This document shows, in pieces, positions 1 to 21,900 of a DNA stretch of 64,000 bases; the stretch's first letter is position 1, and each line of letters opens with the position of its first letter. The DNA comes from an uncultured Planctomycetales bacterium (GTDB lineage: Bacteria; Omnitrophota; Gorgyraeia; Gygaellales; Profunditerraquicolaceae). The position numbers and the translations under genes were made by a program. The notes below the pieces were generated by a model. The model saw only the letters and a list, made by a program, of their open reading frames with translations. It did not search any database and was not told the DNA's origin. Location of the stretch: positions 153,896-217,895 of the forward strand of contig CAZJFL010000001.1 of assembly GCA_964545575.1 (NCBI GenBank), given 5' to 3'.

Positions 1-900
1 AGTAGCGGCTATGCGTAGCCAGGGTGAACCGTGATATAGTTGCGCCAATCTGCCTAATATATCTGATATTACAAAGCCCGCATGTGCGCTAACACCGAAA
101 TTCGAAAGTACTGCGTCCAAAAAAAGTGAAGAAATAGCGATAGGAATAATTAATGAGAAAAAGAATGCGCTAGGCTTCTTCTTAAGTAAGGGTTGGCCAT
201 AAGGAGCAAATAGGATAAAGCCAACGGAAATCAGGTAACCAACGCTCAAGGTAACGATATCCCAATAATCACCAACATAAGTCTTGGGATTCGGATAAGC
301 CTTAGCTATCTGGTTTAGTTCAGCTACTAATTGCAGCCCTAGGTGAAGCGTCATCAAAGCTATTCCTATAAGAGCTGTATCCTTGAAGACTGAATCTAAC
401 TCTTCAGAGGATTTAGACATGGCTTTAAGTAGCCTGCCTATAAGATCAAGAATAAAGAATAAAATGGCTCCAAAACCCAGAGTAATTAGCAAATCGTTAA
501 AATGTGAAGGGATTAACGGTGAGAAGGAATTAAACAAAGAATATAATTGCGTGTCTTTAGCAAAAGATCTCCAAGCAGCAAGAACTAAAATTACTATCGA
601 TATTGAATAATAAAGCCATACCTTGATGTTTACCCTGCTACTACGAAAATAGGCAGAGATTCTAATCAACCACCCCCTGGTTGTGGTAATTAAAATTAGA
701 GGTAATGGTGTCATGACAGCTGCGCTAAGGAGAGTGATTGCGGATACGATAATAACCGCCAGCCACGGCGGACCGGTGAACTGCAAGTGCTTAAGGATTT
801 CCTGTGTATGCGGGGACCCAAGCTTAAACATCGCCGATCCGGAAATGCCGATGCCCAGAAGCGGGGTTAACAATTCAAGCAGGAAGAAGCCGGATGATTT
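1..900 (-). other. Membrane region with several transmembrane helices, the most C-terminal part in the window
   Basis: Verified translation of 1-960 gives successive hydrophobic helices, for example KSSGFFLLELLTPLLGIGISGSAMF, PPWLAVIIVSAITLLSAAVMTPLPLILITTT, WLYYSIVILVLAAW, LGFGAILFFILDLIGRLL, ALIGIALMTLHLGLQLVAEL, VTLSVGYLISVGFILFAPYG and FFFSLIIPIAISSLFLDAVLSNFGVSAHAGFVISDILG. It is preceded by a Pro/Ala linker LQPPAAPVPARPK at about 905-960. Confidence 0.5.
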
Positions 901-3900
901 CTTCGGGCGAGCGGGCACAGGGGCGGCGGGCGGCTGTAAAGGTAAATCTTGATTAATCACAGAAGTAAGATATCCGCGCAATAGCCGGCAAAACGGATCA
1001 TCATCGTCTGCCTCCTGCGACTCAAAAGGATAATCTTCTTTTAAACCATAAAATCCTCCATTATCATCATACTCTTTAAACTTCTGCAGCAGACTCTCAT
1101 CGCTTGTAATATGATTATCCTCAATAAATCTTTTATTTAGTATCTGCTTAAAGCCTTCTAAGCCACCCTCTGACTTAACAACATCTTCATCGGCAAATTG
1201 ACCTATCGTTCTATCTAAAACATACCAGCGCGAATCGCCTTGTATTTTCACCTCCACACAACTATGCCTCCTTATCAAACCTGGGTTTTCTTTCTTTGAA
1301 TCGTAATAACTTACTCTGACCGCTGTAATAAAATCCTCCTTTCTGAACCTATCGCAAATAGCATCTTTCCAATCTCTGCACCATCCTCGTAGCTGACGGC
1401 CCCTTTTACCCCTAATAGGCTCTTTGCATCCAACAACTAAACATTCTCCAAGAATAAGTTTTAGGGATGGCCAGAAGGGATTTTCCTTTAGCGGCGCAAG
1501 GGCCACGAAATCATCGCTGGAACAGGATTCCCGCCCGCCGTTTGCGCCGCAGCCGGGCGCAGGGGCGCGGTTAAAACGGTCGCGTTTGACAAAAGTGCAA
1601 ATAAAGGTGAAGCTATACAATACTACCAAGCAGTAAAGCGGCAGATCGGTCAGCGCATAAAGATAGGCCAGGATAATCAAGGGGATAAAATTAAGGCGGG
1701 TGACGTACCAGATGTTTTTTAGCGGCGAGGCTTTAGGCATCTGATTAGTCCTTAAGAAATGCAGAACAAAGAAGAGCCCCCAGGCAATCACCGTGGCCAG
1801 GCGGATATCCATAAAGAAAGCTAAGGCTAAATTCAGCCCCCAGAAAATCCCTTGCTCTATCCGCGCCTGTTTTTCCAGAGGAATGCCGTGCTGCATCAGG
1901 AAATAACTTAGGGCCGGGATCATACCGGCGCCAGAATTATTATCTTGTCGCGACGCTTGCGGCTCGGGCGCAGGGGCGGCGCCCTCCTCCCGGCCGGCGG
2001 CACCGCTGCCAGGCCGCGGCGCCTGAGACTGATATTTATCAATCCTTACCGCTAAGCCTAAAACCCTACCCTCTTTATCCCTGTTAATGTTTTCTAGTAG
2101 ATGCGGATTTTTCTCAATAAATGATTCCTGTAATCTCTGGGCTTCTGGAGTATTTAAAACAGGAATATGCAGGCTAATACCGGGGATCTCCCCTATATAA
2201 AACTTTCTTACGCCTATCTTTTTCAAATAAGCAAAAACCTCATCGCGCAACAGGCTACCTATACCTTTATCCCGCCAGTCGATGCTCACATAGATGCCGT
2301 CTCCGAAGGCTACGATTGCCTCTTCTAGCGCACAAACATAAAATTGATAAGCTGCTACCGGAGTATTTTTGATAAAGGCGATTATTGCATCCTTACCTTC
2401 ATAGCCGACCTTGGACTTAAACAAGCATACCGAGGAATAACGCCCGAAGAATGTATCGCCTGCCATGCTATCTGACAAATCTTCGGGAAGTTCGCTTAAA
2501 AGATAAAATCTTAAATCCTCAATTTCATCGCTCCGGCCAGAGTCGAGCGCAGGGGCAGCGAGCAGAACGGGAGACTCAGTGTCCCTATAGAAGATTTTTT
2601 CCCAGAACCTGGGGTCAGCCTCGTAAAGAAGAAACTCTTCGTCCCTGTCCAATACAAAGACGCTTTGTCCGTGTTCATGTTTTCTGATCAGGTAATCTAT
2701 AACGCTGGCAAAGAAATCTTGTTCCTCTTTAGTGAGGGGGTCATTTTTATTGAAATACGAATCGCCAAATACATACATCGCAAACTTATCACAAAAGAGC
2801 TCTTCATCAATATCCAGTTTATAGCCGTGCTGGAGGTGTTCGTCTCCTTGATTCTTTCTCCAATCAGAAAGAAAGCCTTCTCTCTTACAAGCTGAGCCAA
2901 ACCTATGCCTTAGTCTTTGCGGTATCAATAAATAAAGCACGTATCCGACCTCATGGTAGAAGCCATGCTCTTCTATGCTGAAAAATATTTCCTCCGCATC
3001 CTTATCTTTTGGACTTAGGCCTAAAGAGTGAAAGACCGTCCATAAAGCATTTACGCCCTGATCAAAAGTAAGGTCGAGGAAGTTGATTTCTGCAAATATA
3101 CGCTTGCCCTCTGCAATATCCATCGCTGCTCTTACCATGCCTATGGGAGCCCGGTTCACATGAGCATCTTTAGTTAAATTCGCAAAATTATAAGTTAATC
3201 CTTCCTCGAATATAAACGGCAGAATACGATAAATCCTTTCTGCCCAACGCTGTATCTGTCGCGGACGGAATTGCCTGATAAAACCTGCGCGCGGGCTGTC
3301 CAAAGGCACCGGTAGGCCAGAGTGAGATTCAAATTCTCTTCTTAGCCTAACCATAAGTAAGGCCATTACTTCTTTATCCAGTCCTTGCCGAAGCAAAGAT
3401 TCCTTTACTTCTTGAAACATCAATCGCCTGATATAATCCTGGCTGCCGTATCTGGCTTGGGTGCTTTGAATATAATTCCTATCATCCGGCGTAGAAGCAG
3501 ATGATGGTTCAGCAGGGGCTATCCCTGCCCCTCGGCTTCTAATAGGTATAGCGGGGATGGTTTTAGTCTTTAAATCAAACCTTAAGTCTCCTTCTTTGGT
3601 CGGTTCAAACCCAAGCGGGATATAAAAATTTTCTGCCTTCCCCTTAGCCGGCGCCAAAATTAAAAATTCACTGTAGCCATAATGTGTTGTTAACTCTAAC
3701 GCTTGGGTAATTAAATTAGAGCCTATGCTGCGAAACTGGTATGCGCTATCTACAAAAATGCCTTCCTTGGCTATAACGCGCCCTTTACCATCGTAAGCAG
3801 TACCGACTAAAACGGTAATGCCATCATCCATCAGGGAAAAATGGAGATAGCCGATAGCCTCACCGCCATGATTAACTTCGATTATCCCAACGCTCCTATG

Positions 3901-6900
3901 CGAGCATCTATTATCGTTGATGGCGATACTCCGATAGCAAAAATCAAACTTCTCCCCGTCTTCGGAATTAATAGTCAAGCGGCCTTGCCTGGCTAAAGTT
4001 TCCCCTATAGATAAGCGGTTAGTGGCGCGACTCCCCTTGCGCTCTGCAATAACTCCCGGGCAGCCGGGCCGAGTTCTTATTTTTCTTAAAACAGCTAATA
4101 TTGTATTCCCGGTAACCGCATAAACCCACCTTGTACCATCGAGGACTTCTGCCTCGTATACGATAGCGACTAATTTTCCTTTATAGAATACTGAGGCGCC
4201 GCAAATCCCACCGTGGTTTATCTCGGTACCGGTCGTATCTATCTCCAGGATATCCCTTGAGCCGTCGCTACAGAGCACTCGGCGTGCAGGCACGGTAACT
4301 ACATCTTTATAGCAGAATCTATTTCCGCTCCTGGCCTTACTGTAACGTATGAATGGGATGACTACTTCAAATTCGCCATCAAGGGGCGGAACGCCTATCT
4401 CTAAAGAATCAAATTCGGTAAGGTAATTCGGCGCAGGCCCTGCTGGGCCCGCAGAGGGGGTATAGGAAATGCTCGAAATGTATATGACCCCGATATCTTT
4501 GCCGGACTCATCGCAACAGGCCAAGATCCTTCCCATGGCAAAAAGTTTATCTTCTGTAAATTCCGCCATGACCAGGTCTCCCGGCTTCACCCGATGCCCC
4601 ACGGTCAAGACAAAAGCCGCATCCCTGGTTGATCTGATAATCGTCCCCTGATATAAAGTACTCTGGTCTACATCCTCCAGCCCAAGGATGCGCCGTAATG
4701 ACCTGTTTCTTTCTTCGCCTGCGACAAACCCTCCGTCTCTTTCCTCTGCCACCTGCGGCTCGGGCGCAGGGGTGGCGGCAGGCGATAATTTAGGATCGGG
4801 TTTAAACGCTACAGCATCACCTATTCCCTCATAGCCTTCTTTTACCCACTTCATGCGCAGTGGGAGAATGTCGTTCTCTATCCCTTTCTTTCCTCCTTCA
4901 TGCAGGCTATATATTAATGAACGAAGGCTATCGCAAAATTCATCAAATTTCATATCGCAGGCATGATCAGTTATACAACTTAATTTTCCTTCATATTGTA
5001 ATGTAGAGAAGTCTATAAGGAGGACCTTTCCGTTTGTGGTAATGAAAATATGCCGTAGGCTAGAATCGCCGTGAAAAATATGTAGTTCGCGATTAAGGAT
5101 CCCATAGACTCTGCCGATTTCCCTGAAAAAATATCTTTCGTTTGCTAAGAACATCTTGCGGTAATATCGATTACGACGATGCTGATCATCTATAACTTCT
5201 TCGAGGGAAAGGCCATCGCTGATCTCGCGGATTAGTAAAGTGTCCGCCACAACAACGGACGGCGGCGTAATCCCTCTCCGGGAAGCCTTGAGGGTTATTT
5301 TGTATTCGAGTGCGGTGGGGTTACGACGTTTTAGATTTGATGAATGGCGTAGTTTTGCGTAGAAAGATACTGGTCCTTTTTCTGTAGTAAGGGTAAATTT
5401 AAGAACGTATCCGAATATATCTGCTCTTTCGTATAGACCTCCTGGCCCTTCTTCTCCCGCAATCTCATGGGTGCTAGCCAAGATCTTTTTTACTCCGAGG
5501 AACTTTTTAATCGCTGCTTGCTTGTAAAGTATGCATTGTACTTTCTCAGCTACAAACGGTTGCTTTTCCTCATCTACCAAAAGCATTCCAATAAACCGAC
5601 TTATCACCGGCGGAGCGCGGGGACGGCGAGCTCCAGCCATCAATAGCCCGCCGACCAAGAGGCCAAGGATAATTCCTGCCAGAATCGGATTATATATTCC
5701 GTCGGCAAATAAAACCAAAAGTACGACAACGGCAGGCAAGCGGGCAATGGTGGCAGATGAATTTGTGCTGCCGGTTTGCGGCGCCTGCGGCCGAGCAGAA
5801 TCTGTGGGCTTGGCGCGGTCAGGGGCGGCCGCAGGGGCGGCGGGATTTGACTCTGACCAAAATGCCCGTAAATAACTTATAGGAATCTCTGGGTAGCGAT
5901 CGTATAAGACCTGATATTGCTGCTTGATCTTACGCAGGCGTACAAGGTCTGTACTGTCTAAAGAATATAACCTTATTTCTTTGACGACCCTTTTCGCCTC
6001 TCGATCCTGTATTAAAGGCTCGAGTGGCCTATCGTTAAGCTTGGCGACCAGCAGTCTTTCAATAAGTTTGAGTCGGTCTAAATCCCCAAAGAAACGTTCA
6101 AACTCAAAATCTTCTTTTCCAAATAACCAGGCCCACTGCAATGTCGCTTTGATCACCTCGATATGCGCGTGGCGAGTAAAACGCACAAAAATCTCATCTA
6201 CCAGGTCTGCCTCATCTACCGCCGCCTCAAATACCTCATGCGCAAAAGTAACCGGCGTATTTACGCTACCCTTAATATAATAAATACCCGACCCCTGAAT
6301 CTCGGGGCAGGCGATAATAGCCCGGAGTTGTGCCGGTTCGAATACGCCAGCGGAATTCCTATCGCGATAATATTTAACTCTTTCCCATACCTGAGAGTTA
6401 ATGTAAATCGCCTGCGTATGCAGATTATAGTCGCCACTTATTTCTTTGGCCCCTAATCTCCTGCCTAATTCAAGCGGATTTTGATTTAGAGAAGGCGCTT
6501 CTTCCAGGCGAACGGCCTGTGCTAGCTTGCGCCAAGCAGTGGCTATGGCTTCATCTATTTCCGGACAAGAAGGAAATAGTCCTTTCCACTCTTTTATAGG
6601 CATACTCCTTCTCTTTTTTGGAACAATTGGCGCCAATACTTCCTGACTATTATCACCCATGTTAGGTAAATGAACGTGGCCCGGCGCAGGGGCGGTAGAC
6701 GGTACGGCTGGAGACTTCTCCCAAATAAAATGCCATGATCCCACAGGCTCATTCCTGAACCCTCGCTTCAGATAAAAATCAGCCATTATCTCATCGGGTT
6801 CTCGGCCACTTTCATCTTGAACAAGAAAAAGAGGAGTATTAATCAAGGTAATGCGGCTAAATTTATTTTGGCAGAATTCTATTAAGGATCCGGCTATACC

Positions 6901-9900
6901 TCTATTGCGGTATTTTGGATGGACAAAGAAATCATCGAGAGAGACTGCATGAAAATCTTTCAGTGTATATACCAGATAACCAAATACTGTTTTGATTATT
7001 GGATCGACAGCTGCAATTAAATGTGTTATGCCACTCAGTAGCTCTTGGGTTCTACTTTCCAGAATATCTAAGTCAGAGTAACCAGGATCAATTGTTAATG
7101 CCTGACCGATACCTTGTTTATCGTATACAAAAATTATCTCTGGTTTAAGTCTTTCTCTCCCTTTTGGCTCAGGGTAAACGGCCACAGGGGCGGCGGCTCG
7201 ATTTTGCTCTGGACAGGCAGGTGAAGATAATCTCTTTACAGAAACATAAGACAATATTTGTGTACCGGAACAAACATCAACCCAGTCTAGGTCTACCGGG
7301 AAACGCTCAGAGAAATCTTGCCTGCGCCAGAATCTACGCGTGTTTCCTTCATCTACGCATGTGCCGTGAAGTAAAATAATATCAAAACCGCATCTTCTTA
7401 AGTATGGCTCAATAACTCTGCTATACCAAACATAACCTACTCCTTTACCGCGTAAAGAAGAATGGATCTCAAGCTTTTTTATAACTGCCATCCAATTAAG
7501 ATTGTAATAAGACCTTACTGATTTTTGACCGCCTGCGATGCCATGTATCATGTGCTCGTGGTAAGCGCTCGCATCGTTCCATAATACATCCCGAAGAAGA
7601 TCGTTAAGTTCACAGTCACCGTAAGCGATTCCCAGGGTATTTTCTACGCAGAGAGTCAAAGAAGCTGCTTCGCATTCCTTTTCAGCGGCCTCTCCTTCCC
7701 TCTTAAATAATAAGGAAAGGCTTATTTCGCCTTCTTTATAGACGGCTACCCGCGTTTCTAATCTTCCCTTCTCGCCTGTATCATCCATTACTTTTTTGAT
7801 TTCTCGGTACGGCAAAAGGCTATCTGGAGCAATTGTCAAGTCAAACTTTGGTTTTCCGCGCGCATCCTCTATTCTATCGGCGGGCGCAGGGGCGCTGTCG
7901 TCTTGCCTGGCCATTGCCAGCTCAAAACCAACAAAGCAGCCCATTGCGCCGCCTATAGGAGGAACAGGTGCATGATAGGGTAAAGCCAGCGGCACTATGA
8001 TGGTTCCGGCATAAGGATTACGCGAATTATATATATTTCGTTTTTCCGGGTCACTAAGCACCAGATAAGCTTCGATAATCTGACGCATGATTTCTCCCAG
8101 GCGCGCATCACTCTGGCAGATATCCGGATGATAGCGTTTGGTCAATTTTAAAAATTGCCCCTTAATCTCATCCGGAGCGGCATCCTTAGTAACCCCTAAA
8201 ACCCCGTAATAATCTTTTTTGTAATCCGCCTGGACGCCTGCGAATAAATCCCGATACTCTTGTTTAAGCCGCTCGAGCCACTTCTGCAATTCCCGTAACA
8301 TATCCTCGGCCATTATCTGGTCTCTAACCGCCTGCCGTAATAAAGCAGCGCTCTGTTTATTTGAATGCCGGGCATAGATATTTAAAAATAAACCTATAAC
8401 CCCAAAGATACCTCCTAAGATACCGAATAAAAACATAATCTCTCCCAGAGACGGCGCGCCTGTGGCGCCGACGAAACTGAAGACTATAAGGGCACCAAAC
8501 ATGGCCAAGAGGATGCGCTTGGCATTTTTATAGAGCCAGATGATCGGCTTGACTACCAGCCATTTAAAGACCAAGCCCGCCAGTGCCGTTACTCCGCTTT
8601 CCAGCAAACCTCCCTTTTCTCCCACGCCGGGTATCTTATCCGTTGCGTGTGAAATTGTGCTCTTGATGATATATTGTGCCAGCTCCGGATGGTCCTTACT
8701 GATCTCTAATGGCGCAGCTGCCAGGCCAAATGTCGGGACCAAACTCCAGAAAAGAGCCAAGAAATACTTTGGCCTGAAAGCGAAGACGATTAAAGAAACC
8801 ACAAACCTGAAGGCAACATCAATCGCCTCAGGGATTAACCAGCCCCACTCCGCCTTCCCCTGAAAAATCAGCGTCTTCAGGAATGCAACCATTCCTCCGG
8901 CTCCGACGATGGGCGGATTAACCACGCCTAAGACCCCCTTGAGAATTACATGCAGGCCGAAAAGAATAATCATATCGCGGTTATCTTTTGCCTCCATTTG
9001 CCGCCTTAATGATTGCGCTTCTTTTTCATCCAGCCGCCCGCTTTTTAAATCTTCGTCTATCCATTTATTGATGAGCTTTTTGGCGTAGACCAGGATCTTA
9101 TCGGGAATGGTCCTAACCCAGCGGAATATAGTAACGAATTGGTGAAATAATGCTTTTATCTTCCCGGTAAATAGATAAATCAAGGCCTGCTTCAAATGAT
9201 ACAGGGTTTGTTTGAAGGCGTAGTGAAAAGGAATGCATAGCGCCCTGACTTTAACATCAATATAGTCGCATAATTGCCAGAAAAGATTTAATAAATGCCG
9301 GGGTAAACTTTTTAAGGTCCTAAAGAGATACTCCCAATCAAAATGCAACGGTTCGCTTTCCCGCCACATTTTCAGGTAATACACCAGCCTCTGGAAATCC
9401 TCTTCTCTGCCAAGTTCGAGATGGCTGTCCACGTAACGCTTCAGCCGCTTAAGCGCTACTAAATCAGCAAAGACCGGCGAGCGACGGTTCAGTAAACCGA
9501 TGACCCAATATTTTATCTCCCACGGAGTCGCCACCACCGAACCCACTAAATCCATTATCCTGAAATCCCCTCCGGCGGTTTTTACGATATTGGCGAGGCT
9601 GTTCAGGTTAGCGCTATCTATCTGGCGGCCGATGCCGATAAAACCTAATTCTCTGACTAAGAAATCATAAAAATCAGCCGCCCTGTGCCTGAACTCGCTG
9701 ATATCAGAGAAACTATGCCGAACGATGCGGCACCCCTCCAGAAGCTGAAATGCCTGGGCATAGCAGCCGGCTTGGCTGTCATAATAAGTAAAAAGTAATT
9801 CCGGCGTTATATTTGCGCCAAATTCCTGCCTGAAGGCGCGGACAATAATCCTGTTGGAGAAATGGTTAGCCAATACTGCCCAGAGATTATTTTCATAGGA

Positions 9901-12900
9901 ATAGGGGTATCCCCGCCAGAGCCGGAACCAGAACCTGACCAAGGCAATGGCTATCTTCTTGGCGGTAGTCTTGGGCCAGATATGATAATATTTCACCGCA
10001 AAAGTCCGGTCGGCGGTTATATCTTTGGCCTTATATACCGTACCGGAAAGGCCCGCGCCCAGTTCGCCCAGTATCTGGATGGTAATGTTACCGGCTCCGT
10101 AAGTCCGGATGTCCTTGACATCTCCTGTTTTCGGCTCTACGCTGCTCACTTTTCTTCGGTCTAATGGCGTAACTACGTCAATAATCTCGGTGCTAAAATC
10201 TGAAGCAATCCCCGGTACCACTGGTTCACTTCTATCATCCGCAGATAACCGGTAGTCATAATGCAGGCCGAAGAAACGCATCACGGAAAACAGCAATAAG
10301 GCCGGGATATAGAATACGGCCGATTCGGCAAATTCATAGACTGCACCCCAGGGGTAGAAGCGGCTGCGCTTTAATAATTCATCACAAAAGTACGCATACC
10401 ACTTCAAATGCCCCTTAAGGTACGGTTCTTTTTTATAGCCGTTCTCGGCAAAGAATTTTAGACTGAAGGCGCGCCGGACAATCAAGTATTTTGTAATTTG
10501 TCTAGAGATAGTTATATTTGGCGTAAGATAAATCGTCCTGCTGACGGGGATATCTTTGCCTCCGAAAATAGCAACCATCGTGTAATCTGCGCTTAGCCGG
10601 ACATCCTCAGCCAGCGCAAGCGCCGCAAGCAATTCTCTATCGCCTGACTTCTCTGCCTGTTGCTTTAGTTCAACGCGGACTTCCCTGATACGTTCTTCAG
10701 GGCTCTTTTTTAAATATTGCGTCAATCTTAAAAATGCCGGAAGGTCCGTAAACGGGAAGTAGCCGATTAAAGGCAAAGCGGAAATAAAGACTAGAGTGCC
10801 AAACACGACCATACTCATAATGCGCAATGGTGCGGGGGTACATAAAATAAGGGCAATGAGCGCGAGGGGGATTAAATTGAGGCCTACGGCAACAAGGATT
10901 TTTCTCGCCCAGTCCGGCTTCGAATTCTTGCCCTGCCATCCAGAACCATCCCTGAGGGCGGATTTTGTTTTAGCTAAAACGATAAAGGCAGAATTGATTT
11001 CCTCAACAGTCAACCTGCTCAGGTCTTTTAATACCATATGCGCGCCAAAACTACGCAATGTCTCTATATCCCCTAAGCCGATAACCAAACCAAAATTACC
11101 GGATATTCCGGCCTTAATATCAGCATCGGCATCACCGATAACTATGGCCTGTTCAGGGGCAACGCCCATTCTTTTGGCAGCAAGCAGAAACATCTCCGGG
11201 TCAGGCTTGCCTCGCTGGACATCCCTACTTGTGATTACCACATCGAAGTTATTCTTTAGGCCAATCTTCTCTAAGATTTCCGGTGTAGCATCAGAGCCAG
11301 AACCAACCACCAGCCTAATCCCTGCCTCGCGCAGCCGGCTTATTAGCGCAAACGTTCCCTGGATTTTATTAACGCCTCTTAACTCTAGTAGCTGCATATA
11401 ATATTTCTGCCGCTCTTGAGCCATCAGTAAAACCTGAGCATCAGCCAATCCGGGAAACATCATCTCTATAGAAGTAGTTTCTTTCCTACCGTTAAGCCGC
11501 TCTTGAAAATATTGCATAGTTACTTCCGGGCCGCGGTGGGCCTCAGAGAGCATCCGCCAAGCCTGGAAATGCTCCTGAACGGTATCGATGATCACGCCAT
11601 CACAGTCAAAAATTACGGCCTTAAAGGAACTGTTCGGGGATAACCCTTCAGGGGACGCTTCTCCGATTGGCACAGGGCCTGGTCCTGCTTTGGCGCGAGA
11701 ACTGTCCCTGAAGAAAGTAAAGAGCCCGTAGGCCAGCGCTAAGAAAACTAAGGCAAAGAAGATAAAGTACGGTATCGCCGGGCGCGTAATCAAAGCGGCT
11801 AAATCTCGAGCGATAAATTGCCAGGTGCCGCTCTGAGTAAGAGTAATTTTAAAAACAGTAAAATAAGGCCATAATTTCAGCATTAAGGAATCAGAAACCA
11901 GCAACCAGCCGAAAACAAAAGCGCACAAAACCGCTGCCGCCGCAAAAGCATAGTAGGTAGGCTTACGCTGGGATTTAAAAACGGTTTGAACCATTCCGCG
12001 CAGTTCATTAAAGCGGGCAAGGAATTCGCCGCAGAAACCTTGATATTTGCGATGTAGCGGCTCATGGTAATCTCGGATGGAAATCTGGAATATTTTCGGC
12101 AGGTATTGGAACGCGGGATGTTGTCCTTCGGGCGTAGCAATATAAGTAGTTAACGCAGGCGGGCCTTTAATCAAACCGGCTTTTTTGGCATAGATCCGGA
12201 ATGCCCGCAGCACAAATAAGCCCTTTACTACAAAAACCAGACCGGCCAAAGCAACTAATACTGTCAGACCTAAACAGATTTTTCCTAACTGGGGGACGCT
12301 GTATACGAAGCCGGCCGCCACCAGAAAAGCAATGAAGGCAAATCCGAAATCCTCCAGCGCAGCGGATTTAGCACTTGCCGCTTTTAACCGCCATGGTCTT
12401 AGGATAAGAGCCCCTCTGCTTTTTTTCTGAATAATCATTTTAACTGCTGAAGAAATATCTATTGGCTTGCCACTCTTCTTGATTGCCTTATTTATCGCGG
12501 CAGAGGTCCAGCCATAACTGATAATCCGGCAGGCATCCCTATACTTTATTCTGGCTTCATCTAAAGCCGCCAAGCCGGCTTTTAATCTTCCCGTAAAAAC
12601 CTTAAACGCCTTACTGCCCAGCCAATCTGTATTATTGTATTTTATACGTTGCCTGTCAGGACGCGAAATTAAACCGTTCTCAACATACTTCTGGCGAAAA
12701 TAAGCTGCTTTATTTAGCTCTTTTACCCTGCGCTGGCCCGCAACATTAGCTACCACGGTTAGATTATCAATAATCTGCTGCGCTAATGTTTTAGGCAACC
12801 TCTCGGCTCTCAACGCCCGATAGAACTTCTTTCTAAATTCTGCTTCTGCTTTTTGTTTTAAAGAAAATCTTCTACTCCTAATCGTGCTTTCGCGGAAAAG

Positions 12901-15900
12901 CTTTATTTGTACTTCCCGAATAAACTTTTTCACAAGTTTATCTCGTTTAAAAATTTCCGGATCCAAGGTTAACCTTACTAACATCCCCTTAACCAGGGCA
13001 GGGTTAAATTTAAGACTCTGGAAAAATTGAAGATCAGACCAGTCAAGACGCGCGCTTACCGTTCCGCAGATATTGAGAGAAATGCCCGCCCTCCCCATCG
13101 CCTCTGCAAGAGCCTCTAAATTAATCCTTCTCGCATCTTGCTCTTCCGGTTCCGGCGCCTGCTCCGGCAGAAGCAGCTCAGGAACCAATCTCTCCAGCCT
13201 GGCAACTAATCCTTCCAGCAATTTCCGCAAGCAGCGGTCCTGCTTTTTTAAACGCCTGATCATCTTGCGCAAATCTCTAAGCGTCTTCTGGGAATCAAGG
13301 ATTCCCGTATCGGTATCGCTGTCTCTGATGCTCTTGCCACTGCTATCCACTAATTGAAAGCCTTCTAATTCTCTAGCTTCCGGTGTTTCCTCGTCTCCCT
13401 CATCTTCTAAAACCACCGGCTCTACCTCGTCATCAACCGCATTGGCATCTTTATCATCGTCTGGCTGCTCTTCTTCGGATTCAAGCTCTACATTTAATAT
13501 TTCAGCTGCCTCTGCTACTACCCGGGATAATTCGGATAAATGCAATCCCTCTGCCCTCTGCTGAATCTCTAATAATAAAATCTCATCCGGCAACTCGAAG
13601 ACAATATTTACCGCCCCGAGAATAATATCTAAAATCGGGCGCGGGACCGGCTGCTGATTTATTTTTCTGGCCTTAGCCCAAGCCTCGTATTGGCTCCACA
13701 AAGAAGCATCCTGGCTGGTCTTTAAGGTGCTGGCCCAAAGCATAGCCATGTTTTCCTGATCAGAAGAGCCTTGCGCTTCTAAACGGCGGGCCTCTTCCAT
13801 CGCACCCAAGGCTGCCTTAAACTGCTTAAGGAATTCCGGTTGAGCAAGAATATACTCTAACAACTGCCTTAATCCTTGCGGCCCGGGCAGCGGAGTAAAA
13901 ATCACTTTGCCCTTTAGCTCCTTAGGCAACTGGTTTTCCTTTAATCTTCCGGAATAGACCGCGGTAACCTGCGGCAGGCCGAGCATCCCGAAGTCATTCG
14001 GCCCGTCGCCGGAAACAAAAACTTCTGCCAGCGGAATTTTCAGGCGTTTGGCTAAAGCGGCTACCGCATCTTTTTTATCCACCAGCGCCACATCCACGGC
14101 AACTGAGGAATAGACAATATTCAACCCTTGAAGGCCTTCTAGGCATACCTTCAGTAACTCGACAAAGCGCAACAATTTAGCGCGCAACTCTTCTTTAGTA
14201 AAGAATAACGAAGCCTCTGAATATTTTTCGTGCACCTCTAATCCCCCCGAGGTTAGAGATTTTTCCAGGCCTAAGCTGCGCGCCGTATTTTTTATCTCGC
14301 CAACTATCCGCTGCCTTAAATCATCCGGCATTTGGCGGCTTAAATCTTTATCTAAAACCAAATCTCCTTTTTGGTCAAAATGCCAGACACAGCCGCCGCC
14401 TTCGGTGAGAATATGGATTTGCCGGCGGTATTTGATTCTGGCCTTCAGGGGAATGCGGTCGCAGAATAAGGTTTTTAAACCCGGCATGCTTCCTACTAGC
14501 CCCATTGCCCGGCCGGTAAGCACGGCAAGGTGGCTTTCCTGCTCTAATGCGTTAACTAGCAGCGCCAGCATTTCCGGAGAAATCGCCTCACGAAAATCCG
14601 CCAGATTATCATCATAGTCGTGAACATAAAGCTTAAACGCTTTCTGCCCATCGGCAGGATATCCCCTGATATCTATACTTAATCCGCAAGGAACATCGCA
14701 CAGAGTAAAGAGATAATCCGGCAGATATCGCTTGATCGAATCGGCTAAGCGCTTCTTCCACAGCGAACCCTGGGCTGACCTTAAGCAGGCCAAGAAATAA
14801 TCGCGCGCCAACATTACCCATTCCAAGAGCCGCGGCAGTATCGGGCCAAAGACGCCAAGGATACTGGCGATAGTGGTGATGATAGTGGTGGTGGTTACCG
14901 CGCTTAAGCCTAAACCAAAGCCTTCTAATTCAAAGTGGCGCGTCATTCTGGCGCGTTCCCTCTCTTTGGCTTTCCTAAAAGCCGTTGTTCTAAGGTCTCC
15001 AATCGTTTCTCTGTAGCGGGCAATCCTTTCCCGCAGCCCGCCGTTATCCGCAGCTGATATCCTAATCCCGCACAATAGCCTTGCTGCCCGGTCAAAATTA
15101 GCTACTGCTTCTGCGATATCCGGTTCTACTAGAAGGTCATCGGGCTGAAGCTGCCATATCCCTGCGTTAATAGCAATATCTATTTCTGCTGTTAAGATGT
15201 GGTTATTAATCGTTGTCCTGTAAATCGCCTTTACCTGTTGGCAGGTCATTTTGGCACCATTAATCTGATGAGTGGAGAAGGCCCGGGGAGGCATGCTGTC
15301 CAATATTGCCTGTGCTTGCCTAAATTTGCCGAGGGCTGCCTCTGGATCTTTGACCAGCGCTGCTAAGCCTTCGCGAATAAGGATAATCATTTCCATTTTG
15401 CTGATGAGAATAGCTGCTTCGGCCTCGGACTTCCGTAATTCTGCCGCTATTTTTTGCAACTTAATGTAGCGGCCAAAGAATGCCGCCTTCTCAGCAGGAA
15501 TGATGGTTTCCAAAATCTCTTTGGCTTGCTGATAGCGCGCCAATTCCGCCCTTAATTCCTCCAGAGTCTTCTTGCCGTTTGCCTGCTGCGTGGGCGCTTG
15601 CTGGAGCTGTTTAGCCATTCTAAGCTTACCAAGGATAGCTTTTAATCCCTCATAATCCGCGCAGATCTCTTTTTCTATAAAATCCCGCCAACCGCTATAC
15701 ATTACCACCTTGGTCCTTGCTTCTTTAATGAAGCAATAGAACCTGCCGCGAAAAGTAAAGCCTAAATTTTGGATGCTAAGAGTCAGGTTTTTGGAAATCT
15801 CCTCTATAGCTTTACTGACTACATATTCTTTCCTTTTCCATCTATCTTTCTCTTGGGGCAGAGGTTTATATTTCAAGCCGGCTAAGCGCGCTGCCCGGCG

Positions 15901-18900
15901 CATAGCCGTCTCCCATTTTATTTTCCATTCTTTATGATTACTGGACCAGGCTTTTTGTATATCATAACGCATTTTATTATCCCTGAGATATTCCAAAACA
16001 AGGTTATTGCGGAATCCCTCGTTCTTTTTAAATTCTTCTGCTAACTGCTGGATAAATCTTTCCTTTGTCCACTTAATGTGTATGGCCTTATACCCCCTGG
16101 CTTCCAAAAGCGCGTACCAATCTGGGTAACCATAATGCTTATGATATACGAAGGCGCCCATAAGCCCAGAATAACTATCATAAATCGCATCATAATCCGT
16201 GGTTCCCAGCCTTTGTATGGTCTTATCCAATTCTGCGCAAAAATATGGCCAGGTCCACTTCGTCATTTGCGTCCTTGCGTCAGTACGTTCAATACCCGCC
16301 TCCGCTACTGCAGCATCAAAGTCCTTAAATATTTCCAGCCTTAGCAAATGCCTGTACCAATTTTCCAATCTATGGTATTTGTTTTGAATAATATACGCTG
16401 AAACATGCCCCTCTTTTCTGTAAACCTCCCTCAATTGCTTACAAAACGCCTCTTTTTCTTCCTGAATCACGCCATTAAAACCTTTCTTTATAGAATCTAT
16501 TCTTTTTCTCCGGGCAGCATCGAAACGCATCTCTGATTCTAAAAGCCGCTTTAACATATCCTCTACAAAATAGATGAATCTCCACTTATTAGCTCTGGGC
16601 TTACGGGAAGCGTCCGGGCTAATCTGGCTTATTCTACCCATATATGATTCTATACTGCTGATTTGCCTTTCTATAAGCTTGGCTTCCGGGTCGGGGCTGG
16701 TGATGCAGAGTAATACATCTTTGCGCTCAAAAATCCTCAGCCATTTACACACCACTTCTATAGAATATCCGCATGATAAAGCCGCGGCAGTTTGACGGAC
16801 GGTCAAACTGGCCTTGCCCATTCTTAAAAGTTTGGCATTAATCCTAAAGGCCTCAGCTACTTTATCCGGCTGGACGAGTCTGATAAACTCATCGCTTGAC
16901 AAAAAATCTATTTTCTGTAACGCCTTTAACTGGATATTATCTAAGTAACTGCATTTAACAAAATTACTCCATTTCAAGTCACGGAACTCTCTGGTATTAG
17001 CCGGGTTAATAAAACCGGCAAGGCTGTTTATAATCTTGTTGATCATTACGGGAGAAAGGCGCTGCCTGACAAAGGCGCTCCGGAGAATCTCTATATTTTT
17101 AGCCCGGCATTGTAATCTTTGGCGCCTATGAGGCTCTTTTCGATTAACGGAGGAAACTGCCGGCACCGGCGGGAAGGTAAATAAGACATTCGGGGAATAA
17201 GCGAAAGAAAACTTTGCCAAAAACTTTTCCGGATAAAGCAGGTAGGATAAAATTTTGTCGCGGATAAACTCAAGCGGCGGGGCTTTGTTCCAAATGCTCC
17301 AGCGCATAATCTCGTCGCGATAATTATAAGCGGTTAAATAGACAAGCATAGCCAAACCAAGGGGGCCGGCACCGGCACAAAAAACAGCGCCTGCCGATTC
17401 AGTTCTTCTTTTTCTGCGGGAGCTTCTATACCTCCAGTTAAAATGTTGCATAACCAGGCCCTTGACCTCCCTCTTTACCTTGCGGATAATCCGCAGTATC
17501 TCGACTCTGTCAATATGATGACGTTTTACCAATTTATCCATGATTACGTCTTCTTCGAAGCCGAGCAGAAAGCCCCTTAGCCAATCAAGGAAAATTTTCC
17601 GTTCCTGAACCGTAAAACCATTAGTTTTAAGTTCTCTCCTGAAGGTATCGAATATTCTGGCTAGCGCCCTGTTATAACCATAATCCCTGCCGGGCATTGT
17701 TTCTTCCAAGGTATCTTTACCGTCTTCGTCGAACCCCTCCACGCACATATCTAAAGATACAGGGTTATTCCGGAAGGCTATACCGCGACAGTAGAACGCA
17801 TCCTGAATAGCTTTTCTAATCGCCCCCTTGAGGTATTCCTCAAAACCGCCTTCTCCGGGCTTGTATTCGTCTGATGCCTTATCAATACCGGACATTAATC
17901 CCAAGTTTCCAATACCGATTAATTCCTCTTCCCTTAAACCGCGCGGATGAATGATCTCTTCAAACACCTGAATGACCAGCGGCAGATAATGACAGATAAG
18001 CAACTCTCTAAACTCTTTACCGTTACCTTTAAGCAACTCAGTAATTGCTGCGCTTAACTGTTCGTCACTCAAGCGAGGAACGGTTTTCAGTTCATGACGA
18101 TATACTTCTGCTATATTACACTCGCCCCTCCTGCGAAGTCCCACTTTCATAACAGGTTTTTTTGCGCGCTTTCGCCTAGCAGCAGAAACAGACTCAAGCC
18201 CCAATTCCCTTAAATTATCCGCCAGGTATTCTGCAGTAACTTCTCTTCCATTGCGCAACTCTTCAAAAACCAGAAGGAAAAAATGCAGCAAGCCTATTCC
18301 TTTCTGGCTTAAGTTTCGCCCACCCCCTTGCCTGATCAATAACCCTAGCTTGCTTAATTTCTCTAAATGCAGGTGGAGTGGCTTAAGGTCACCTGTTTTC
18401 CCCCGGCCTTTAAGGGGGTGGCCGTACTGTTTCAACAACTCTATGATTTCTGAATTACTCCTTCCGTTGGCAACAGCTAAAAATATAATCAGCCTTCTTG
18501 TTGATAATGTGTGTAGCACAGGAAGCTTATAGATTACGCCGCTCTCAAAGATAGCCGTAAATTCATCATCCGAAAGAAAGCTGGCCCTCTGGACAGATGT
18601 TACTCTTGCGCTTTTAAGCGCGCCGGCAATCTCTTCTTCGCGCATTGAATCAATGGCTTCCATAACTTTATTACCTCGAGCAGAAAGCGCATAATCTCTA
18701 CCCTCTTTTACCACCAGGCCCCTTTTGATAAATACCTCCAAGCTCCTGCGTATCCGCCTGCGCTCTAGAGGAGTAGTATCGACTAAAAGCGCATATTTAG
18801 CCCAAAGCTTTCTGAATCCGGCAATCAGCGGCCTCTGGTCTGCCAATGCTTTAAACAGCGCATCAAGATCAGCCGGGGAAGAGGCGCTTTTTAGTATTTT

Positions 18901-21900
18901 TTCAGAGACAAAATCCTTGATCTCCTGAGAAGCGTAACAATAGGTATCCTCTGGATTAGAGAGCAGAAAACCGTCACGCACCATCTTCTGTAGGGTGTAT
19001 CGCACAATTGCCCGCTTCATTCCTGTAGACCTGTAAATCTCAAATATATTGCGCTTGCCTTTGGCAATGGCAAGCAAAACGATAATTACCGCCAGCCTCG
19101 CGATAGTCTTCTTTTCCCGTAAAACACCCTGCTCAGCAGGAAAAAGACGCCCCAAGACTACCGCCTCTATTGTATTTAAACCGAGCCCCTTTACCGCATG
19201 CTCAAAAGTAAATTCTTCAAATTTCGGAGTATATCCTAAGCTTATCAACAAATCATTTGGCTCCTGCTTAGTATCGGCAAGGTAGCCAAGGACTTTTTCT
19301 TTTATCTGCGGGCAAAGCGTATAAACAAATCCTATTCTCGCTGCCAATCTCTCCCCTACAAGGTTCCTTAAGACCTGTTCTACTCTAATCTTATAATTAA
19401 ATAATACGCCGTATGCCCGCCAAGGACGCGTATCATATGTCATATCCAGATAATTCCATAATTCGGATGCGCTGAAATAAGCTGATGGCCCGTTGAGCGC
19501 ATATCCCTCTAATACTGCTATCAGCGGCAAGAGCAAAAACGCGTTGTGCAATAAGCCCTTCATCTTATTATCCCAGGGAAATTCTAACAGCTTCTGAAAT
19601 TGTGTTTTAAATGCCGCGTCTCTTTCGGAAATAGAAACAGGCAGTCCGAAAGATACCCTGACGTCCCTCAGGCGCCTGCCTAAAGCGCGTAATTTCTCGG
19701 GGGCAAAAGGCCTTTGCGTAGCTTCTCTTATCGTTTCATCTATAAGAGACGTCAATCTTGCCGGAAATGCCTCTTTTGTAAGCCCGGCTTTACGCAAGGC
19801 CTGAATTTTATGGATAAGCTGCGCAAACAGAGCGGATAAAATTGCATCTTCAAGCCGGCCGATAAGGGAGCGGACCTGGTAAAAAATACCTTTGCTAAAA
19901 TAACGGTTAATCTCCTCTACGGTAATGATGGAAAGGAAATCCCATAGTTGGTATAAATGCTGCGCTTCTTTACTAGAAGAAGGCCGCATTAAAAGCTTTA
20001 CCCGGGCAATAGCATCTAAGAGCATTTCCCTACTTAGCAGCCCACGTACTTTTCTGAGCGGCGTAGGATAAAAGCGCGTTATTGCCCGAGCGGTATCAGT
20101 CTCTGCAGCCTCGATCTTTATGGTTTTTCCGTTTTCAATCCAGACTCTTAGCGTAGCGCCGTAATGGCGAATGGAAACGTATATCTGGCGCTCAATCGCA
20201 ATCCTGCCCTCTCTGTTTAATTTTAGTGTGGGCCCTTGCAAAATAATAATCCGCCCGGCAAACTTCCCCCGGTGCAAGGAGAGCATTACCTTTCTCTTAT
20301 TGCTCGGGAAAGAACCGATTATCTCTTTAGTCGCGGCATCGCGCATAAGGTTTAAATCTTCTCTTTTTTCGTTATCCGCCGCCAGCCTCACCCAGAATAA
20401 TATCCCTTTCTCAAAATAAGCTTCAATATCCTGTCCCGCAAAACGCTTAAAGTTATTGAAATTCTGGTCGGCAAATTCAAAACGCCCCAGCCGCGTCAAT
20501 CCCGGCAGCCGGGTGCGCAAAATGAGCTGCTTATGCAGCCTATTAAGCTCCTCCCAGCGGGTAGCTGAAACGCCCCAGCTGGATTTGTAAAGAGATTTGC
20601 CTGCGGGAGTGAGAATCTCCGTAAAACGCCTTTGCTTAAGATAACGCGGCCTTTGCGTTTGCGACGCTGTTTCAGCTACCGAAGCTGCTGCGCAACCCAA
20701 TCCCATACCAAATAGCTTATACCACTGCTGCATAAAACCGGAAAAGAACCAGCATAAAGCCGCAAAAACGCCAAGCGCAGTAATCAGAAAGATAATTTTT
20801 TTGCCGGTAGAAAGCCGCGGCCAGAAAACCTCCAGCCCGCCTAAACCGCAGGCAAGGACGCTATCGTCATTGTATTCGCCGTCGGCGTTAAATGGCCGGA
20901 CGCTGCGGTCAACATCAAGCTGCTTATCTTCTGATGTCGCGTCATCCGGAACCGGGCGCCTTGCTGCCGTAGGCTGCGGCTGAGTTTTTTCCCTGACGCT
21001 TTCCGGATGCGGGTGCTGCTTGCCGTTTCTTAATCCTGCCAATATAAAGGCTAAATGTCTTAAGTCTTCCTTTATAGGCATAAATGTTTCATATCTTAAA
21101 CTACTCTCCTCGGCATCGGCAAGTATAGAGCAAATCTCTTTTATCACTACTGTTAATTCTTCTAACACTTCTTTCGCTAATCGGCGCCTTAAATTAGGGG
21201 CTAAAGCCTCCAGAATATTTTCTGTCCGGCTGAATAAATCTAATGCCCTGGGAAAATCCTGCCGCACTATGGCTTCGTGCGCTTCGGAAATTATCCCGCG
21301 GATTTGTTGCGTCGGAGTAAGCGCCTTTGCTTTCGACGCCTTCTGCTGTGGCGTCTTCTGCTGCGCTGCTTGTCCTCGCTGGCTTTGCTGCCTGGCTGCT
21401 TCTTGCCGGGCTGCTTCTTGCCTGGCTGCTTCTTGCCGGGCTAATTTTAGCTTGGCTGCTTCTTGAGTAGCTGCTTCTCTGGTAGCATATCTGGCTAATT
21501 GTTCCCCTGTCCTGCGGAATGCCGCCGCTGCCTGTCTTTTAACTACCATCCTAAATTTCATTTCAGCTATCTTGGCCTGCCTTTGAGTTTCCCGTTTTTG
21601 CCTTGCCTGCTCTCGCTTCTCTAATTCAAGCCTTTTCTGTTCTATTTTCTCTTGCGCTATGGCTCTTCTTGCAGCTTCTCTTTTTTGTCGTTCCTCACTG
21701 ATAATCTCTTCTGTGTCACGGATTAACTGCCCAAGGTCGATCTTAAGCTGGCGCAACTCTTCTAAAACAGCAGCCTTAATTTTCGCCAATCTCTTTTCTT
21801 CGGCTACCGGCAACTCCAGGCGTCTAAGCATAACCTGATATCTTCTTAACCGCTGCAGCGGAAAATATTGCACTGCTTCTTCCAGGTCTAATCTTGCCTG

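Follow-up and report, generated by a model that had tools for sequence, protein, structure and literature searches.

A canonical J-domain follows a transmembrane cluster in a giant open reading frame of an Omnitrophota bacterium

The 64,000-nucleotide stretch of DNA analyzed here (the window: positions 153,896 to 217,895 of contig CAZJFL010000001.1, assembly GCA_964545575.1, from an uncultured bacterium placed in the Omnitrophota) was found to encode, on its minus strand, part of a giant protein in which one canonical J-domain follows a cluster of transmembrane (TM) helices. On balance, this J-domain probably acts as a class C J-domain within a giant multi-enzyme polypeptide, serving locally and in cis as a holdase or folding aid that would recruit DnaK at the membrane face. 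The same DNA had earlier been read by a model from its letters and reading frames, and what that sequence-only reading had proposed is taken up below together with the results that bear on it.

The giant frame and its J-domain

A single minus-strand frame was open from one end of the window to the other, with 0 stops in 21,333 codons, whereas each of the other five frames carried between 689 and 1,531 stops over the 64 kb. At the stop codon frequency of the other two same-strand frames (~ 7%), the natural logarithm of the probability that the giant frame is open by chance was ~ -1580. All of the Pfam domains detected in the window lie in this open reading frame (ORF), which holds PGK, HEAT, TPR, GT1, ARMT1-like, ABC1, wHTH and HAD domains, two GNAT domains and one DnaJ domain, as well as a weak M48 match. 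Hydrophobic windows of 19 residues numbered 85, many of them overlapping, and were grouped in clusters along the chain. With an unbroken frame that holds every Pfam domain and has TM clusters scattered along it, the window is therefore an inner part of a giant minus-strand gene encoding a membrane-threaded, multi-enzyme protein. The sequence-only reading had spoken of a protein of more than 21,000 residues, and the count of codons without a stop agrees with this.

The J-domain was aligned over the full length of the Pfam profile PF00226 (positions 1-63 of 63), with a score of 62.3 bits against a gathering cutoff of 27.8 and an E-value of 4.6e-17. The canonical J-domain with intact HPD described in the sequence-only reading was thus confirmed, and the three motifs that it had quoted without naming a strand (DYYGVLGV, KRYHPD and AYLVLSDPEKR) are all present on the minus strand, between residues 18596 and 18654. 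The HPD tripeptide occurs once in the 21,333 residues. Note, however, that a bare HPD would be expected ~ 0.7 times by chance in a chain of this length and composition, and so the tripeptide alone carries no weight and it is the profile match that carries the proof. The closest solved relatives are housekeeping J-domains, including those of Thermus DnaJ2 (E about 6e-16) and Escherichia coli DnaJ (43% identity), the identity to housekeeping DnaJ J-domains in general being 43-50%, and the best NCBIfam matches were exclusively to DnaJ models. The J-domain itself is ordinary and canonical.

A structure model was prepared for residues 18485-18700, using an alignment of DnaJ matches from a word-indexed protein search. 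The J-domain was modelled with a predicted local distance difference test (pLDDT) score of 94-97, with helices I-IV and with the HPD loop lying between model helices 125-138 and 148-165. An HPD tripeptide bereft of its surrounding helices, which the sequence-only reading had set against its own proposal, is not what the model contains, since all four helices are in place at that level of confidence. Comparison of the model with solved structures using Foldseek placed it, over 62 residues, 1.0 Å from the DnaK-bound E. coli J-domain of the crystal structure 5nro_B (target TM-score 0.91), and 0.8 Å from human Tid1. Root-mean-square deviations to 2dn9 and 5nro_B were 0.8-1.0 Å, with target-normalised TM-scores of 0.80-0.91. 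When the whole unit was modelled (706 residues), no part except the J-domain reached high confidence, the rest being without homologues in the alignment.

The competence of the J-domain for Hsp70 was explored using a comparison profile of 173 J-domains taken from an exhaustive search. The consensus was kept at all core positions (in E. coli numbering Y7, L10, G11, A16, I21, L28, Y32, A53, Y54, L57, D59, R63 and Y66, together with HPD), and the KR motif of helix IV is intact. In E. coli, the charges that position DnaJ on DnaK are R22, K26, R27, K48 and K51, and the catalytic contacts are H33, P34 and D35 (PMC8215388). In the giant these five charged positions are occupied by K, L, K, R and I, respectively. 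Of the DnaK contacts in helices II and III, a check of which was suggested in the sequence-only reading, three of the five charges are thus kept and the K26 and K51 sites are replaced. Helix II carries extra basic residues, K30 and R31, and is still basic. The altered positioning charges would be compatible with function, because Hsp70-interface residues outside HPD vary and co-evolve with the partner (PMC7289447). Taken together, the intact HPD, the consensus core, the basic helix II and a predicted fold close to that of the DnaK-bound E. coli J-domain make this J-domain look competent. The Hsp70 partner is most likely DnaK, as judged by the 43-50% identity to DnaJ J-domains compared with the 16-25% identity to the J-domain of DnaJ that is seen in J-domains dedicated to HscC or HscA (PMC8215388). 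Recruitment of DnaK to this membrane protein, as put forward in the sequence-only reading, was a reasonable proposal given the same features and the predicted cytoplasmic side considered below.

Table 1. Coordinates of the giant ORF fragment and of the features around its J-domain
Feature	Residues of the chain	Window position	Strand	Basis
Giant ORF fragment, 21,333 codons, open at both window ends		1..63999	minus	Frame count
Probable kinase-like domain, N-terminal half of a family without a Pfam model	~17975-18225	9325..10077	minus	Motifs
TM cluster, seven hydrophobic segments	18343-18539	8383..8973	minus	Hydrophobicity
Final TM hairpin	18496-18514 and 18521-18539	8383..8514	minus	Charge pattern and model
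Linker helix, 46 residues, last TM helix to J-domain	18548-18593	8221..8358	minus	Model
J-domain, full length, four helices	18596-18658	8026..8214	minus	PF00226 and model
HPD tripeptide, loop between helices II and III	18624-18626	8122..8130	minus	Sequence and model
Disordered tail, proline- and hydrophobic-rich		7900..8001	minus	pLDDT below 50
Domain C, conserved, no known family	~18710-18900	7300..7872	minus	Exhaustive search and internal paralogue
GNAT acetyltransferase domain, in the TM-free segment shared with the J-domain	~18993-19082	6754..7023	minus	Pfam

Membrane cluster, linker and tail

The sequence-only reading had placed the J-domain directly downstream of a TM helix cluster, with an upper bound at window position 8900. 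The cluster is real and reaches a little further, to 8973, but the two are not immediately adjacent, the last TM helix and the J-domain being 56 residues apart. Of these, 46 were modelled as one continuous helix (model residues 64-109, pLDDT 75-90), which was continuous again in the 706-residue model. The modelled order of segments is therefore two TM helices, the 46-residue helix, the J-domain and a disordered tail.

The TM cluster most likely comprises six spans with both flanks cytoplasmic, since all of its basic loops would point inward if the weakly hydrophobic fifth of the seven segments is not a span. This fifth segment comes after the PGxGxxG loop that is conserved in the family to which the module belongs. 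The N-terminal flank of the cluster is strongly basic, with 15 lysines or arginines in 63 residues. The final hairpin is preceded by a loop (KPIIWLYKNAKR) with a charge of +4 and followed by a basic flank, and its two helices are joined by a short acidic loop (APSLGE).

Between residues 18540 and 19416 there are no hydrophobic segments, and this stretch also holds a GNAT domain. The acetyl-CoA cofactor of GNAT enzymes is cytoplasmic. The J-domain would accordingly lie on the cytoplasmic (DnaK) side of the membrane, a placement that we infer from the positive-inside rule and from the adjacent GNAT and kinase-like domains, both of the type that uses ATP or acetyl-CoA. At least 2,675 residues follow the J-domain. 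The disordered tail of 34 residues (NPYAGTIIVPLALPYHAPVPPIGGAMGCFVGFELAMA) comes directly after the J-domain. It contains a hydrophobic core, TIIVPLAL, which has a basic residue six positions before it and is free of acidic residues in its vicinity. The published DnaK motif consists of a five-residue hydrophobic core with basic flanks (PMC8215388), and the fit to this motif makes the tail, by inference only, a candidate DnaK-binding segment in cis.

Neighbouring modules and the uniqueness of the fusion

When 1.84 billion representative proteins were searched exhaustively using HMMER, with residues 18101-18900 as the query, this region was split into three independent conserved pieces, termed A, B (the J-domain) and C. 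Piece A consists of residues 18108-18218 and 18284-18519, and thus includes the TM cluster. Nine relatives of it were found (P0022, P0024, P0026, P0027, P0036, P0040, P0044, P0057 and P0092), of 243 to 2,697 residues, and none of the nine carries a J-domain or any Pfam domain. In the family alignment these proteins end in RRWR…W(R/K)FG(L/M)P at the point where the giant enters its linker helix. The longest relative, P0036, is a giant-type fragment of 2,697 residues that fills its contig, in a metagenome-assembled genome (MAG) labelled Verrucomicrobiae, and it has module A without a J-domain. By comparison, P0027 is an ordinary stand-alone protein of 733 residues from an Abditibacteriaceae MAG (L001:9293-11569). 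The gene neighbours of P0027 are two PAP2 genes, a tyrosine-phosphatase-family gene, NAPRTase and isochorismatase, with no chaperone genes. When a narrower piece A alignment was used to scan the collections, the Abditibacteriaceae locus encoding P0027 was the sole match, and neither the source contig nor close relatives of the TM segment were found in the genome, metagenome or viral collections. Of the word-indexed protein searches, the one with the TM-module alignment found again just one of the input sequences, and the one with domain C gave no match.

The module upstream of the J-domain is probably a protein-kinase-like domain. The motifs of its family, which are characteristic of protein-kinase-like domains, are LGxGLxGTVY, an FVEK or FAVK lysine, a YVEG hinge, ARQVDPxNxN and, at the DFG position, LLD(V/I)VPG. 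The corresponding motifs in the giant are the Gly-rich loop GELGAGLSGTVYKA, the FAVK lysine, an LLEG hinge, GRQIDSANLN and RIMDLVG. The TM half of the family contains a conserved PG(F/V)G(E)(R/K)G loop, which in one form reads PGFGERG. Scores against known kinases were weak, with 13 bits and E = 0.067 for Pkinase, and a profile search of the PDB returned Ser/Thr kinases only, at E = 0.19 and over the Gly-rich loop only. Alignment with the giant's own ABC1 domain using hhalign gave a probability of 37% and E = 3.6e-4 over 216 columns, with the motifs in register. The kinase-like region was modelled with a pLDDT of about 40-55, at which neither its fold nor the number of TM helices is settled by the model. 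ABC1/UbiB atypical kinases share with this module the order of a kinase-like soluble domain followed by C-terminal TM helices, but PF03109 has no match in it. The kinase-like/TM family may represent a membrane lipid kinase or an atypical kinase.

For piece B, the 27,892 matches at E-values up to 1e-3 were all generic, and the top-ranked proteins with multiple J-domains were eukaryotic. One of the matched proteins, P0020, had the appearance of a homologue of the whole module, with six matched stretches and 120 bits; it was rejected because the six stretches are six tandem J-domains.

Domain C, of about 190 residues, shows only a faint resemblance to GNAT (PF00583, E = 0.12). It has a paralogue within the giant at residues 1334-1470 (window ~59590-60000, minus strand), with 28% identity and E = 5e-17. 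Its relatives elsewhere are multi-domain proteins that also have methyltransferase, LOG, GNAT or histidine-kinase/receiver domains. In three of them, which bear the annotation 'partial, Candidatus Omnitrophota bacterium', the ORF takes up the entire contig.

No protein that pairs a J-domain with piece A or with domain C was found among the 1.84 billion representatives, an absence that is meaningful because such a protein would outscore every match listed. The GC content of the J-domain, its GC content at third codon positions and its synonymous codon usage were all within the range of the giant ORF itself, the codon usage falling at the 92nd percentile of the ORF windows. A recent horizontal insertion was considered and set aside, composition and codon usage giving it no support. 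The relatives of both neighbours lack a J-domain and its composition resembles that of its host ORF, which makes it a lineage-specific addition placed between two older modules without obvious signs of being recent.

Comparison with known J-domain proteins and giant proteins

The giant is by definition a class C J-domain protein, as far as its domain content goes. Proteins of this class have only the J-domain in common with DnaJ, carry it anywhere in the chain and often combine it with TM regions and unrelated domains (PMC8215388; PMC10410713). They are described as having '54 to more than 1,000' residues (PMC8215388), whereas the giant has at least 21,333 and a combination of neighbours that is unique among the 1.84 billion representatives. 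Assignment to class A or B was rejected, because a G/F region, a zinc finger (PF00684) and the C-terminal domains (PF01556) are all missing and PF00226 is the only Pfam match in this region. A word-indexed search with the TM cluster and J-domain together, in which words from the J-domain predominated, returned only ordinary DnaJ proteins, which aligned on the J-domain, over 12-17% of the query, and all of which carry PF01556, with or without PF00684.

DjlA has one N-terminal TM helix, a central domain and a C-terminal J-domain in ~ 270 residues. The giant resembles it in having a membrane anchor followed by a predicted cytoplasmic J-domain, with DnaK as the likely partner. It differs in its multi-span cluster, in the length of chain that follows the J-domain and in a J-domain sequence closer to that of DnaJ. 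Membership of the DjlA family was rejected, as the equivalog model PRK09430 scored 14.4 bits against a cutoff of 162 and matched only at profile positions 191-231 of 267, which are part of the J-domain. The DjlA-like proposal of the sequence-only reading does not hold at the level of family, given this score, the different TM arrangement and the non-terminal J-domain. The DjlB and DjlC type was rejected as well. These proteins have an N-terminal J-domain, ~23-25% identical to that of DnaJ, and a C-terminal TM anchor (PMC8215388), the reverse of the order in the giant, in which the TM cluster comes before a J-domain with 43% identity to that of E. coli DnaJ.

In the giant, the J-domain resides within the putative client itself and is predicted to face the cytoplasm. 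In Sec63 and Pam18/Tim14, a J-domain at the membrane surface beside TM helices places Hsp70 at an emerging polypeptide, and these proteins are small, dedicated subunits of import machines that face the lumen or the matrix. No homology between them and the giant was seen beyond the J-domain. Of the systems compared, Sec63/Pam18 would be the nearest mechanistic analogy for capture in cis at a membrane, and the J-domain of the giant may work like DjlA or Sec63/Pam18 in tethering Hsp70 activity to the membrane surface. Sec63 is mentioned among J-domain proteins in the literature on this family (PMC10410713).

The giant resembles the known giant proteins of Omnitrophota in its more than 20,000 codons, its scattered TM helices and its GNAT, HAD and GT1 domains, which are carried by predicted cytoplasmic stretches. 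Giants of this type are recognised by a length of at least 10,000 residues, numerous TM helices and a mixture of enzyme domains, all of which it has. Within a 2026 catalogue (10.64898/2026.06.07.730766), it corresponds to Pfam modules 1 and 2 and to the class called 'TM-only, membrane-anchored cytoplasmic-domain'. Divergent SecA-DEAD domains and C39/S8 peptidase domains have been reported in 'most' full-length giants (West-Roberts et al. 2023, 10.1101/2023.11.21.568195). In this window no SecA-DEAD, C39/S8, dockerin or TSP3 domain was found at E-values up to 0.01, and the ORF continues past both ends. The terms DnaJ, J-domain, Hsp70 and DnaK are not mentioned in the main text of two papers on Omnitrophota giants or of a survey of huge proteins, and DnaJ/PF00226 had no match in one supplementary file of the 2026 preprint.

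Other features of the window

The PGK match of the giant (residues 638-919; window 61243-62088, minus strand) scored 151 bits and covers only profile positions 8-263 of 379. The incomplete PGK is embedded between TM clusters, an odd site for a fragment of a glycolytic enzyme.

A segment of ~80-110 residues, comprising a Thr/Ile-rich hydrophobic stretch (GLGLSAATITTIITTITSILGAFGPILPRLLEGVMLARDYLLACLRSA), is present in three copies that are 67-87% identical, at residues 10387-10496, 12624-12733 and 16361-16442 (window 32512-32841, 25801-26130 and 14674-14919, minus strand). The three copies are far more alike than the other internal repeats, which suggests a recent duplication or gene conversion. 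No relatives of the 110-residue repeat were found in the JGI metagenomes. Other internal paralogous segments are 39-50% identical and include residues 5953-6121 paired with 13020-13187 (window ~45640-46140 and ~24440-24940, minus strand) and residues 4265-4314 paired with 7124-7167. Such paralogues show that the giant ORF grew in part by internal duplication.

Winged-helix domains are also present in this membrane-threaded giant, at window 22600-23500 and nearby on the minus strand (residues ~13745-13800 and ~14970-15120). The wHTH-PRTase_assc match scored 30.8 bits, above its cutoff, and MarR_2 scored 28.8 bits (cutoff 27) with no single stretch passing alone. The glycosyltransferase of the giant gave weak 'GT4-conflict' matches which, together with the winged helices, belong to the vocabulary of conflict systems. 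A search with PADLOC for a defence system near the J-domain gave nothing beyond one match of 12.9 bits, located at the Gly-rich loop.

Complete ORFs of at least 150 residues number three in the window, all on the plus strand and antisense to the giant, at 10796-11401, 52199-52708 and 57167-57676. They are located in the plus-strand frames with the fewest stops and are most likely by-products of codon bias on the coding strand and not genes. The GC skew of the plus strand was negative in every 2-kb bin (cumulative value -3.7), the coding strand being G-rich throughout the 64 kb, and this uniformity is consistent with a single orientation of transcription and replication across the window.

Proposed function and alternative explanations

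One interpretation of these data, and the one that we prefer, is that the J-domain aids its own polypeptide locally at the membrane. The chain would re-enter the cytoplasm after the last helix of the roughly six-span TM cluster, and the rigid 46-residue helix would hold the J-domain off the membrane. The basic helix II and the HPD loop would then bind ATP-loaded DnaK and trigger ATP hydrolysis, upon which DnaK would clamp on to a nearby unfolded hydrophobic segment. The most probable clients would be parts of the same polypeptide, namely the disordered tail, the ~ 750 residues of cytoplasmic domains downstream and adjacent TM segments awaiting insertion. The J-domain would have been added late in evolution to one module and would not be something that giant proteins have in general. 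Late acquisition of J-domains as a supply of 'chaperone power' has been described (PMC8215388). A local, module-level role fits better than a role for the whole protein because there is only one J-domain, it comes late in the chain and the relatives of its module do without it.

Several points weigh against this interpretation. Two of the five DnaK-positioning charges are gone (K26 to L and K51 to I), and HPD is followed by an unusual IC in place of K/R-N. The topology comes from a hand analysis of charges and hydrophobicity and not from a trained predictor, and TM predictors themselves disagree on giant proteins (West-Roberts et al. 2023, bioRxiv 10.1101/2023.11.21.568195). The high pLDDT of the J-domain partly reflects an alignment made up of J-domains only, with which such an outcome was to be expected, and the model confirms the fold but not the activity. 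The J-domain has no orthologues against which purifying selection could be judged. A J-domain this late in the chain cannot aid the cotranslational folding of the 18,595 or more residues that precede it, the presence of dnaK in the host is assumed, and the present evidence does not distinguish action in cis from action in trans.

It could be, in particular, that the J-domain acts in trans as a DjlA-like co-chaperone that concentrates DnaK at the inner face of the membrane to serve other proteins of the membrane or envelope, whether as part of the intact giant or once cleavage has released a piece comprising the kinase-like domain, the TM cluster and the J-domain. This is possible though not probable. 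The order of membrane anchor and cytoplasmic J-domain matches the logic of DjlA, TM-bearing class C proteins are common in bacteria (PMC8215388; PMC10410713), and the kinase-like/TM module stands alone elsewhere, in P0027, so that such a unit could be autonomous. Self-cleavage by C39/S8 peptidase domains has been proposed for giants (West-Roberts et al. 2023), but the window contains no C39 or S8 domain and no obvious cleavage site. Nor is there an in-frame start codon preceded by a Shine-Dalgarno-like (SD-like) sequence between residues 18150 and 18600 from which a separate piece could be made; the protein falls far short of the DjlA family cutoff, and no client is known. A broader form of action in cis, in which the giant would encode its own co-chaperone and, in the manner of Hsp70 at the Sec63 and Pam18 translocons, use DnaK on its own emerging or re-entering segments as a holdase or entropic ratchet for its own folding and the threading of its TM segments, appears doubtful. 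The sequence-only reading had named folding or quality control of the whole giant as one plausible role, and this fits less well with a single J-domain whose place in the chain is late (residue 18,596 or beyond) and that is absent from P0036. Were the broader form true, the giant would be a bacterial client encoding its own co-chaperone, and would provide an experimental handle on the biogenesis of giant membrane proteins.

Alternatively, the J-domain could be a passenger without a current function, a small J-domain gene that became fused into the giant and was kept because the event was recent or neutral. A giant ORF that is a mosaic of housekeeping-type domains (PGK, GT1, HAD, GNAT and ABC1), a fusion that occurs once among the representatives searched and is missing from the relatives of both neighbours, and some unusual surface positions would all accord with such an origin. 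It is nevertheless unlikely, given that the core, HPD and the helix IV KR motif are intact with a profile score typical of working J-domains, that the host-like codon usage argues against a very recent arrival, and that the domain is predicted to lie on the DnaK side at the end of a dedicated linker helix. A partner other than housekeeping DnaK, such as an HscC-like or other specialised Hsp70 paralogue, seems very unlikely. The membrane-anchored DjlB and DjlC do pair with HscC (PMC8215388), and the two replaced charges and the atypical residues after HPD could reflect another partner surface; however, the identity to housekeeping DnaJ is well above that of the HscC and HscA types, and the best NCBIfam matches are all DnaJ models. 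That the giant is not one protein at all, whether because the open frame is an artefact of assembly or framing or because it is read from internal starts into many separate products, can hardly be entertained. The ends of the ORF do lie beyond the window and the contig was absent from every collection searched, but a frame with no stop, against ~ 7% stop codons in the other same-strand frames, holds all of the Pfam domains, no in-frame start preceded by an SD-like sequence occurs in the 450 codons before the J-domain, and comparable ORFs are documented in complete Omnitrophota genomes. Local recruitment of DnaK in cis is thus the reading retained here. The identity, completeness and predicted fold of the J-domain, its neighbours and the lack of this fusion among the representatives searched are established by the data, while its cytoplasmic location, DnaK as its partner and its action on the same chain are predictions.

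Significance

Within the libraries and papers searched, the setting of this J-domain is new, both in its host of at least 21,333 residues and in its fusion to an un-annotated kinase-like/TM module. How polypeptides of tens of thousands of residues are synthesised, folded and inserted is a question raised in the papers on Omnitrophota giant genes. The apparently competent J-domain offers a part of such a protein that is small enough to clone and has a testable predicted activity, stimulation of the DnaK ATPase that should be lost on mutation of HPD. If J-domains are rare one-offs among giants, as the comparisons suggest, this would be one more late addition to a single module and would not be surprising. 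If functional, the J-domain would link the biology of giant proteins to the Hsp70 system, and would extend class C architectures to a host more than 10 times the upper length range given in the 2021 review.

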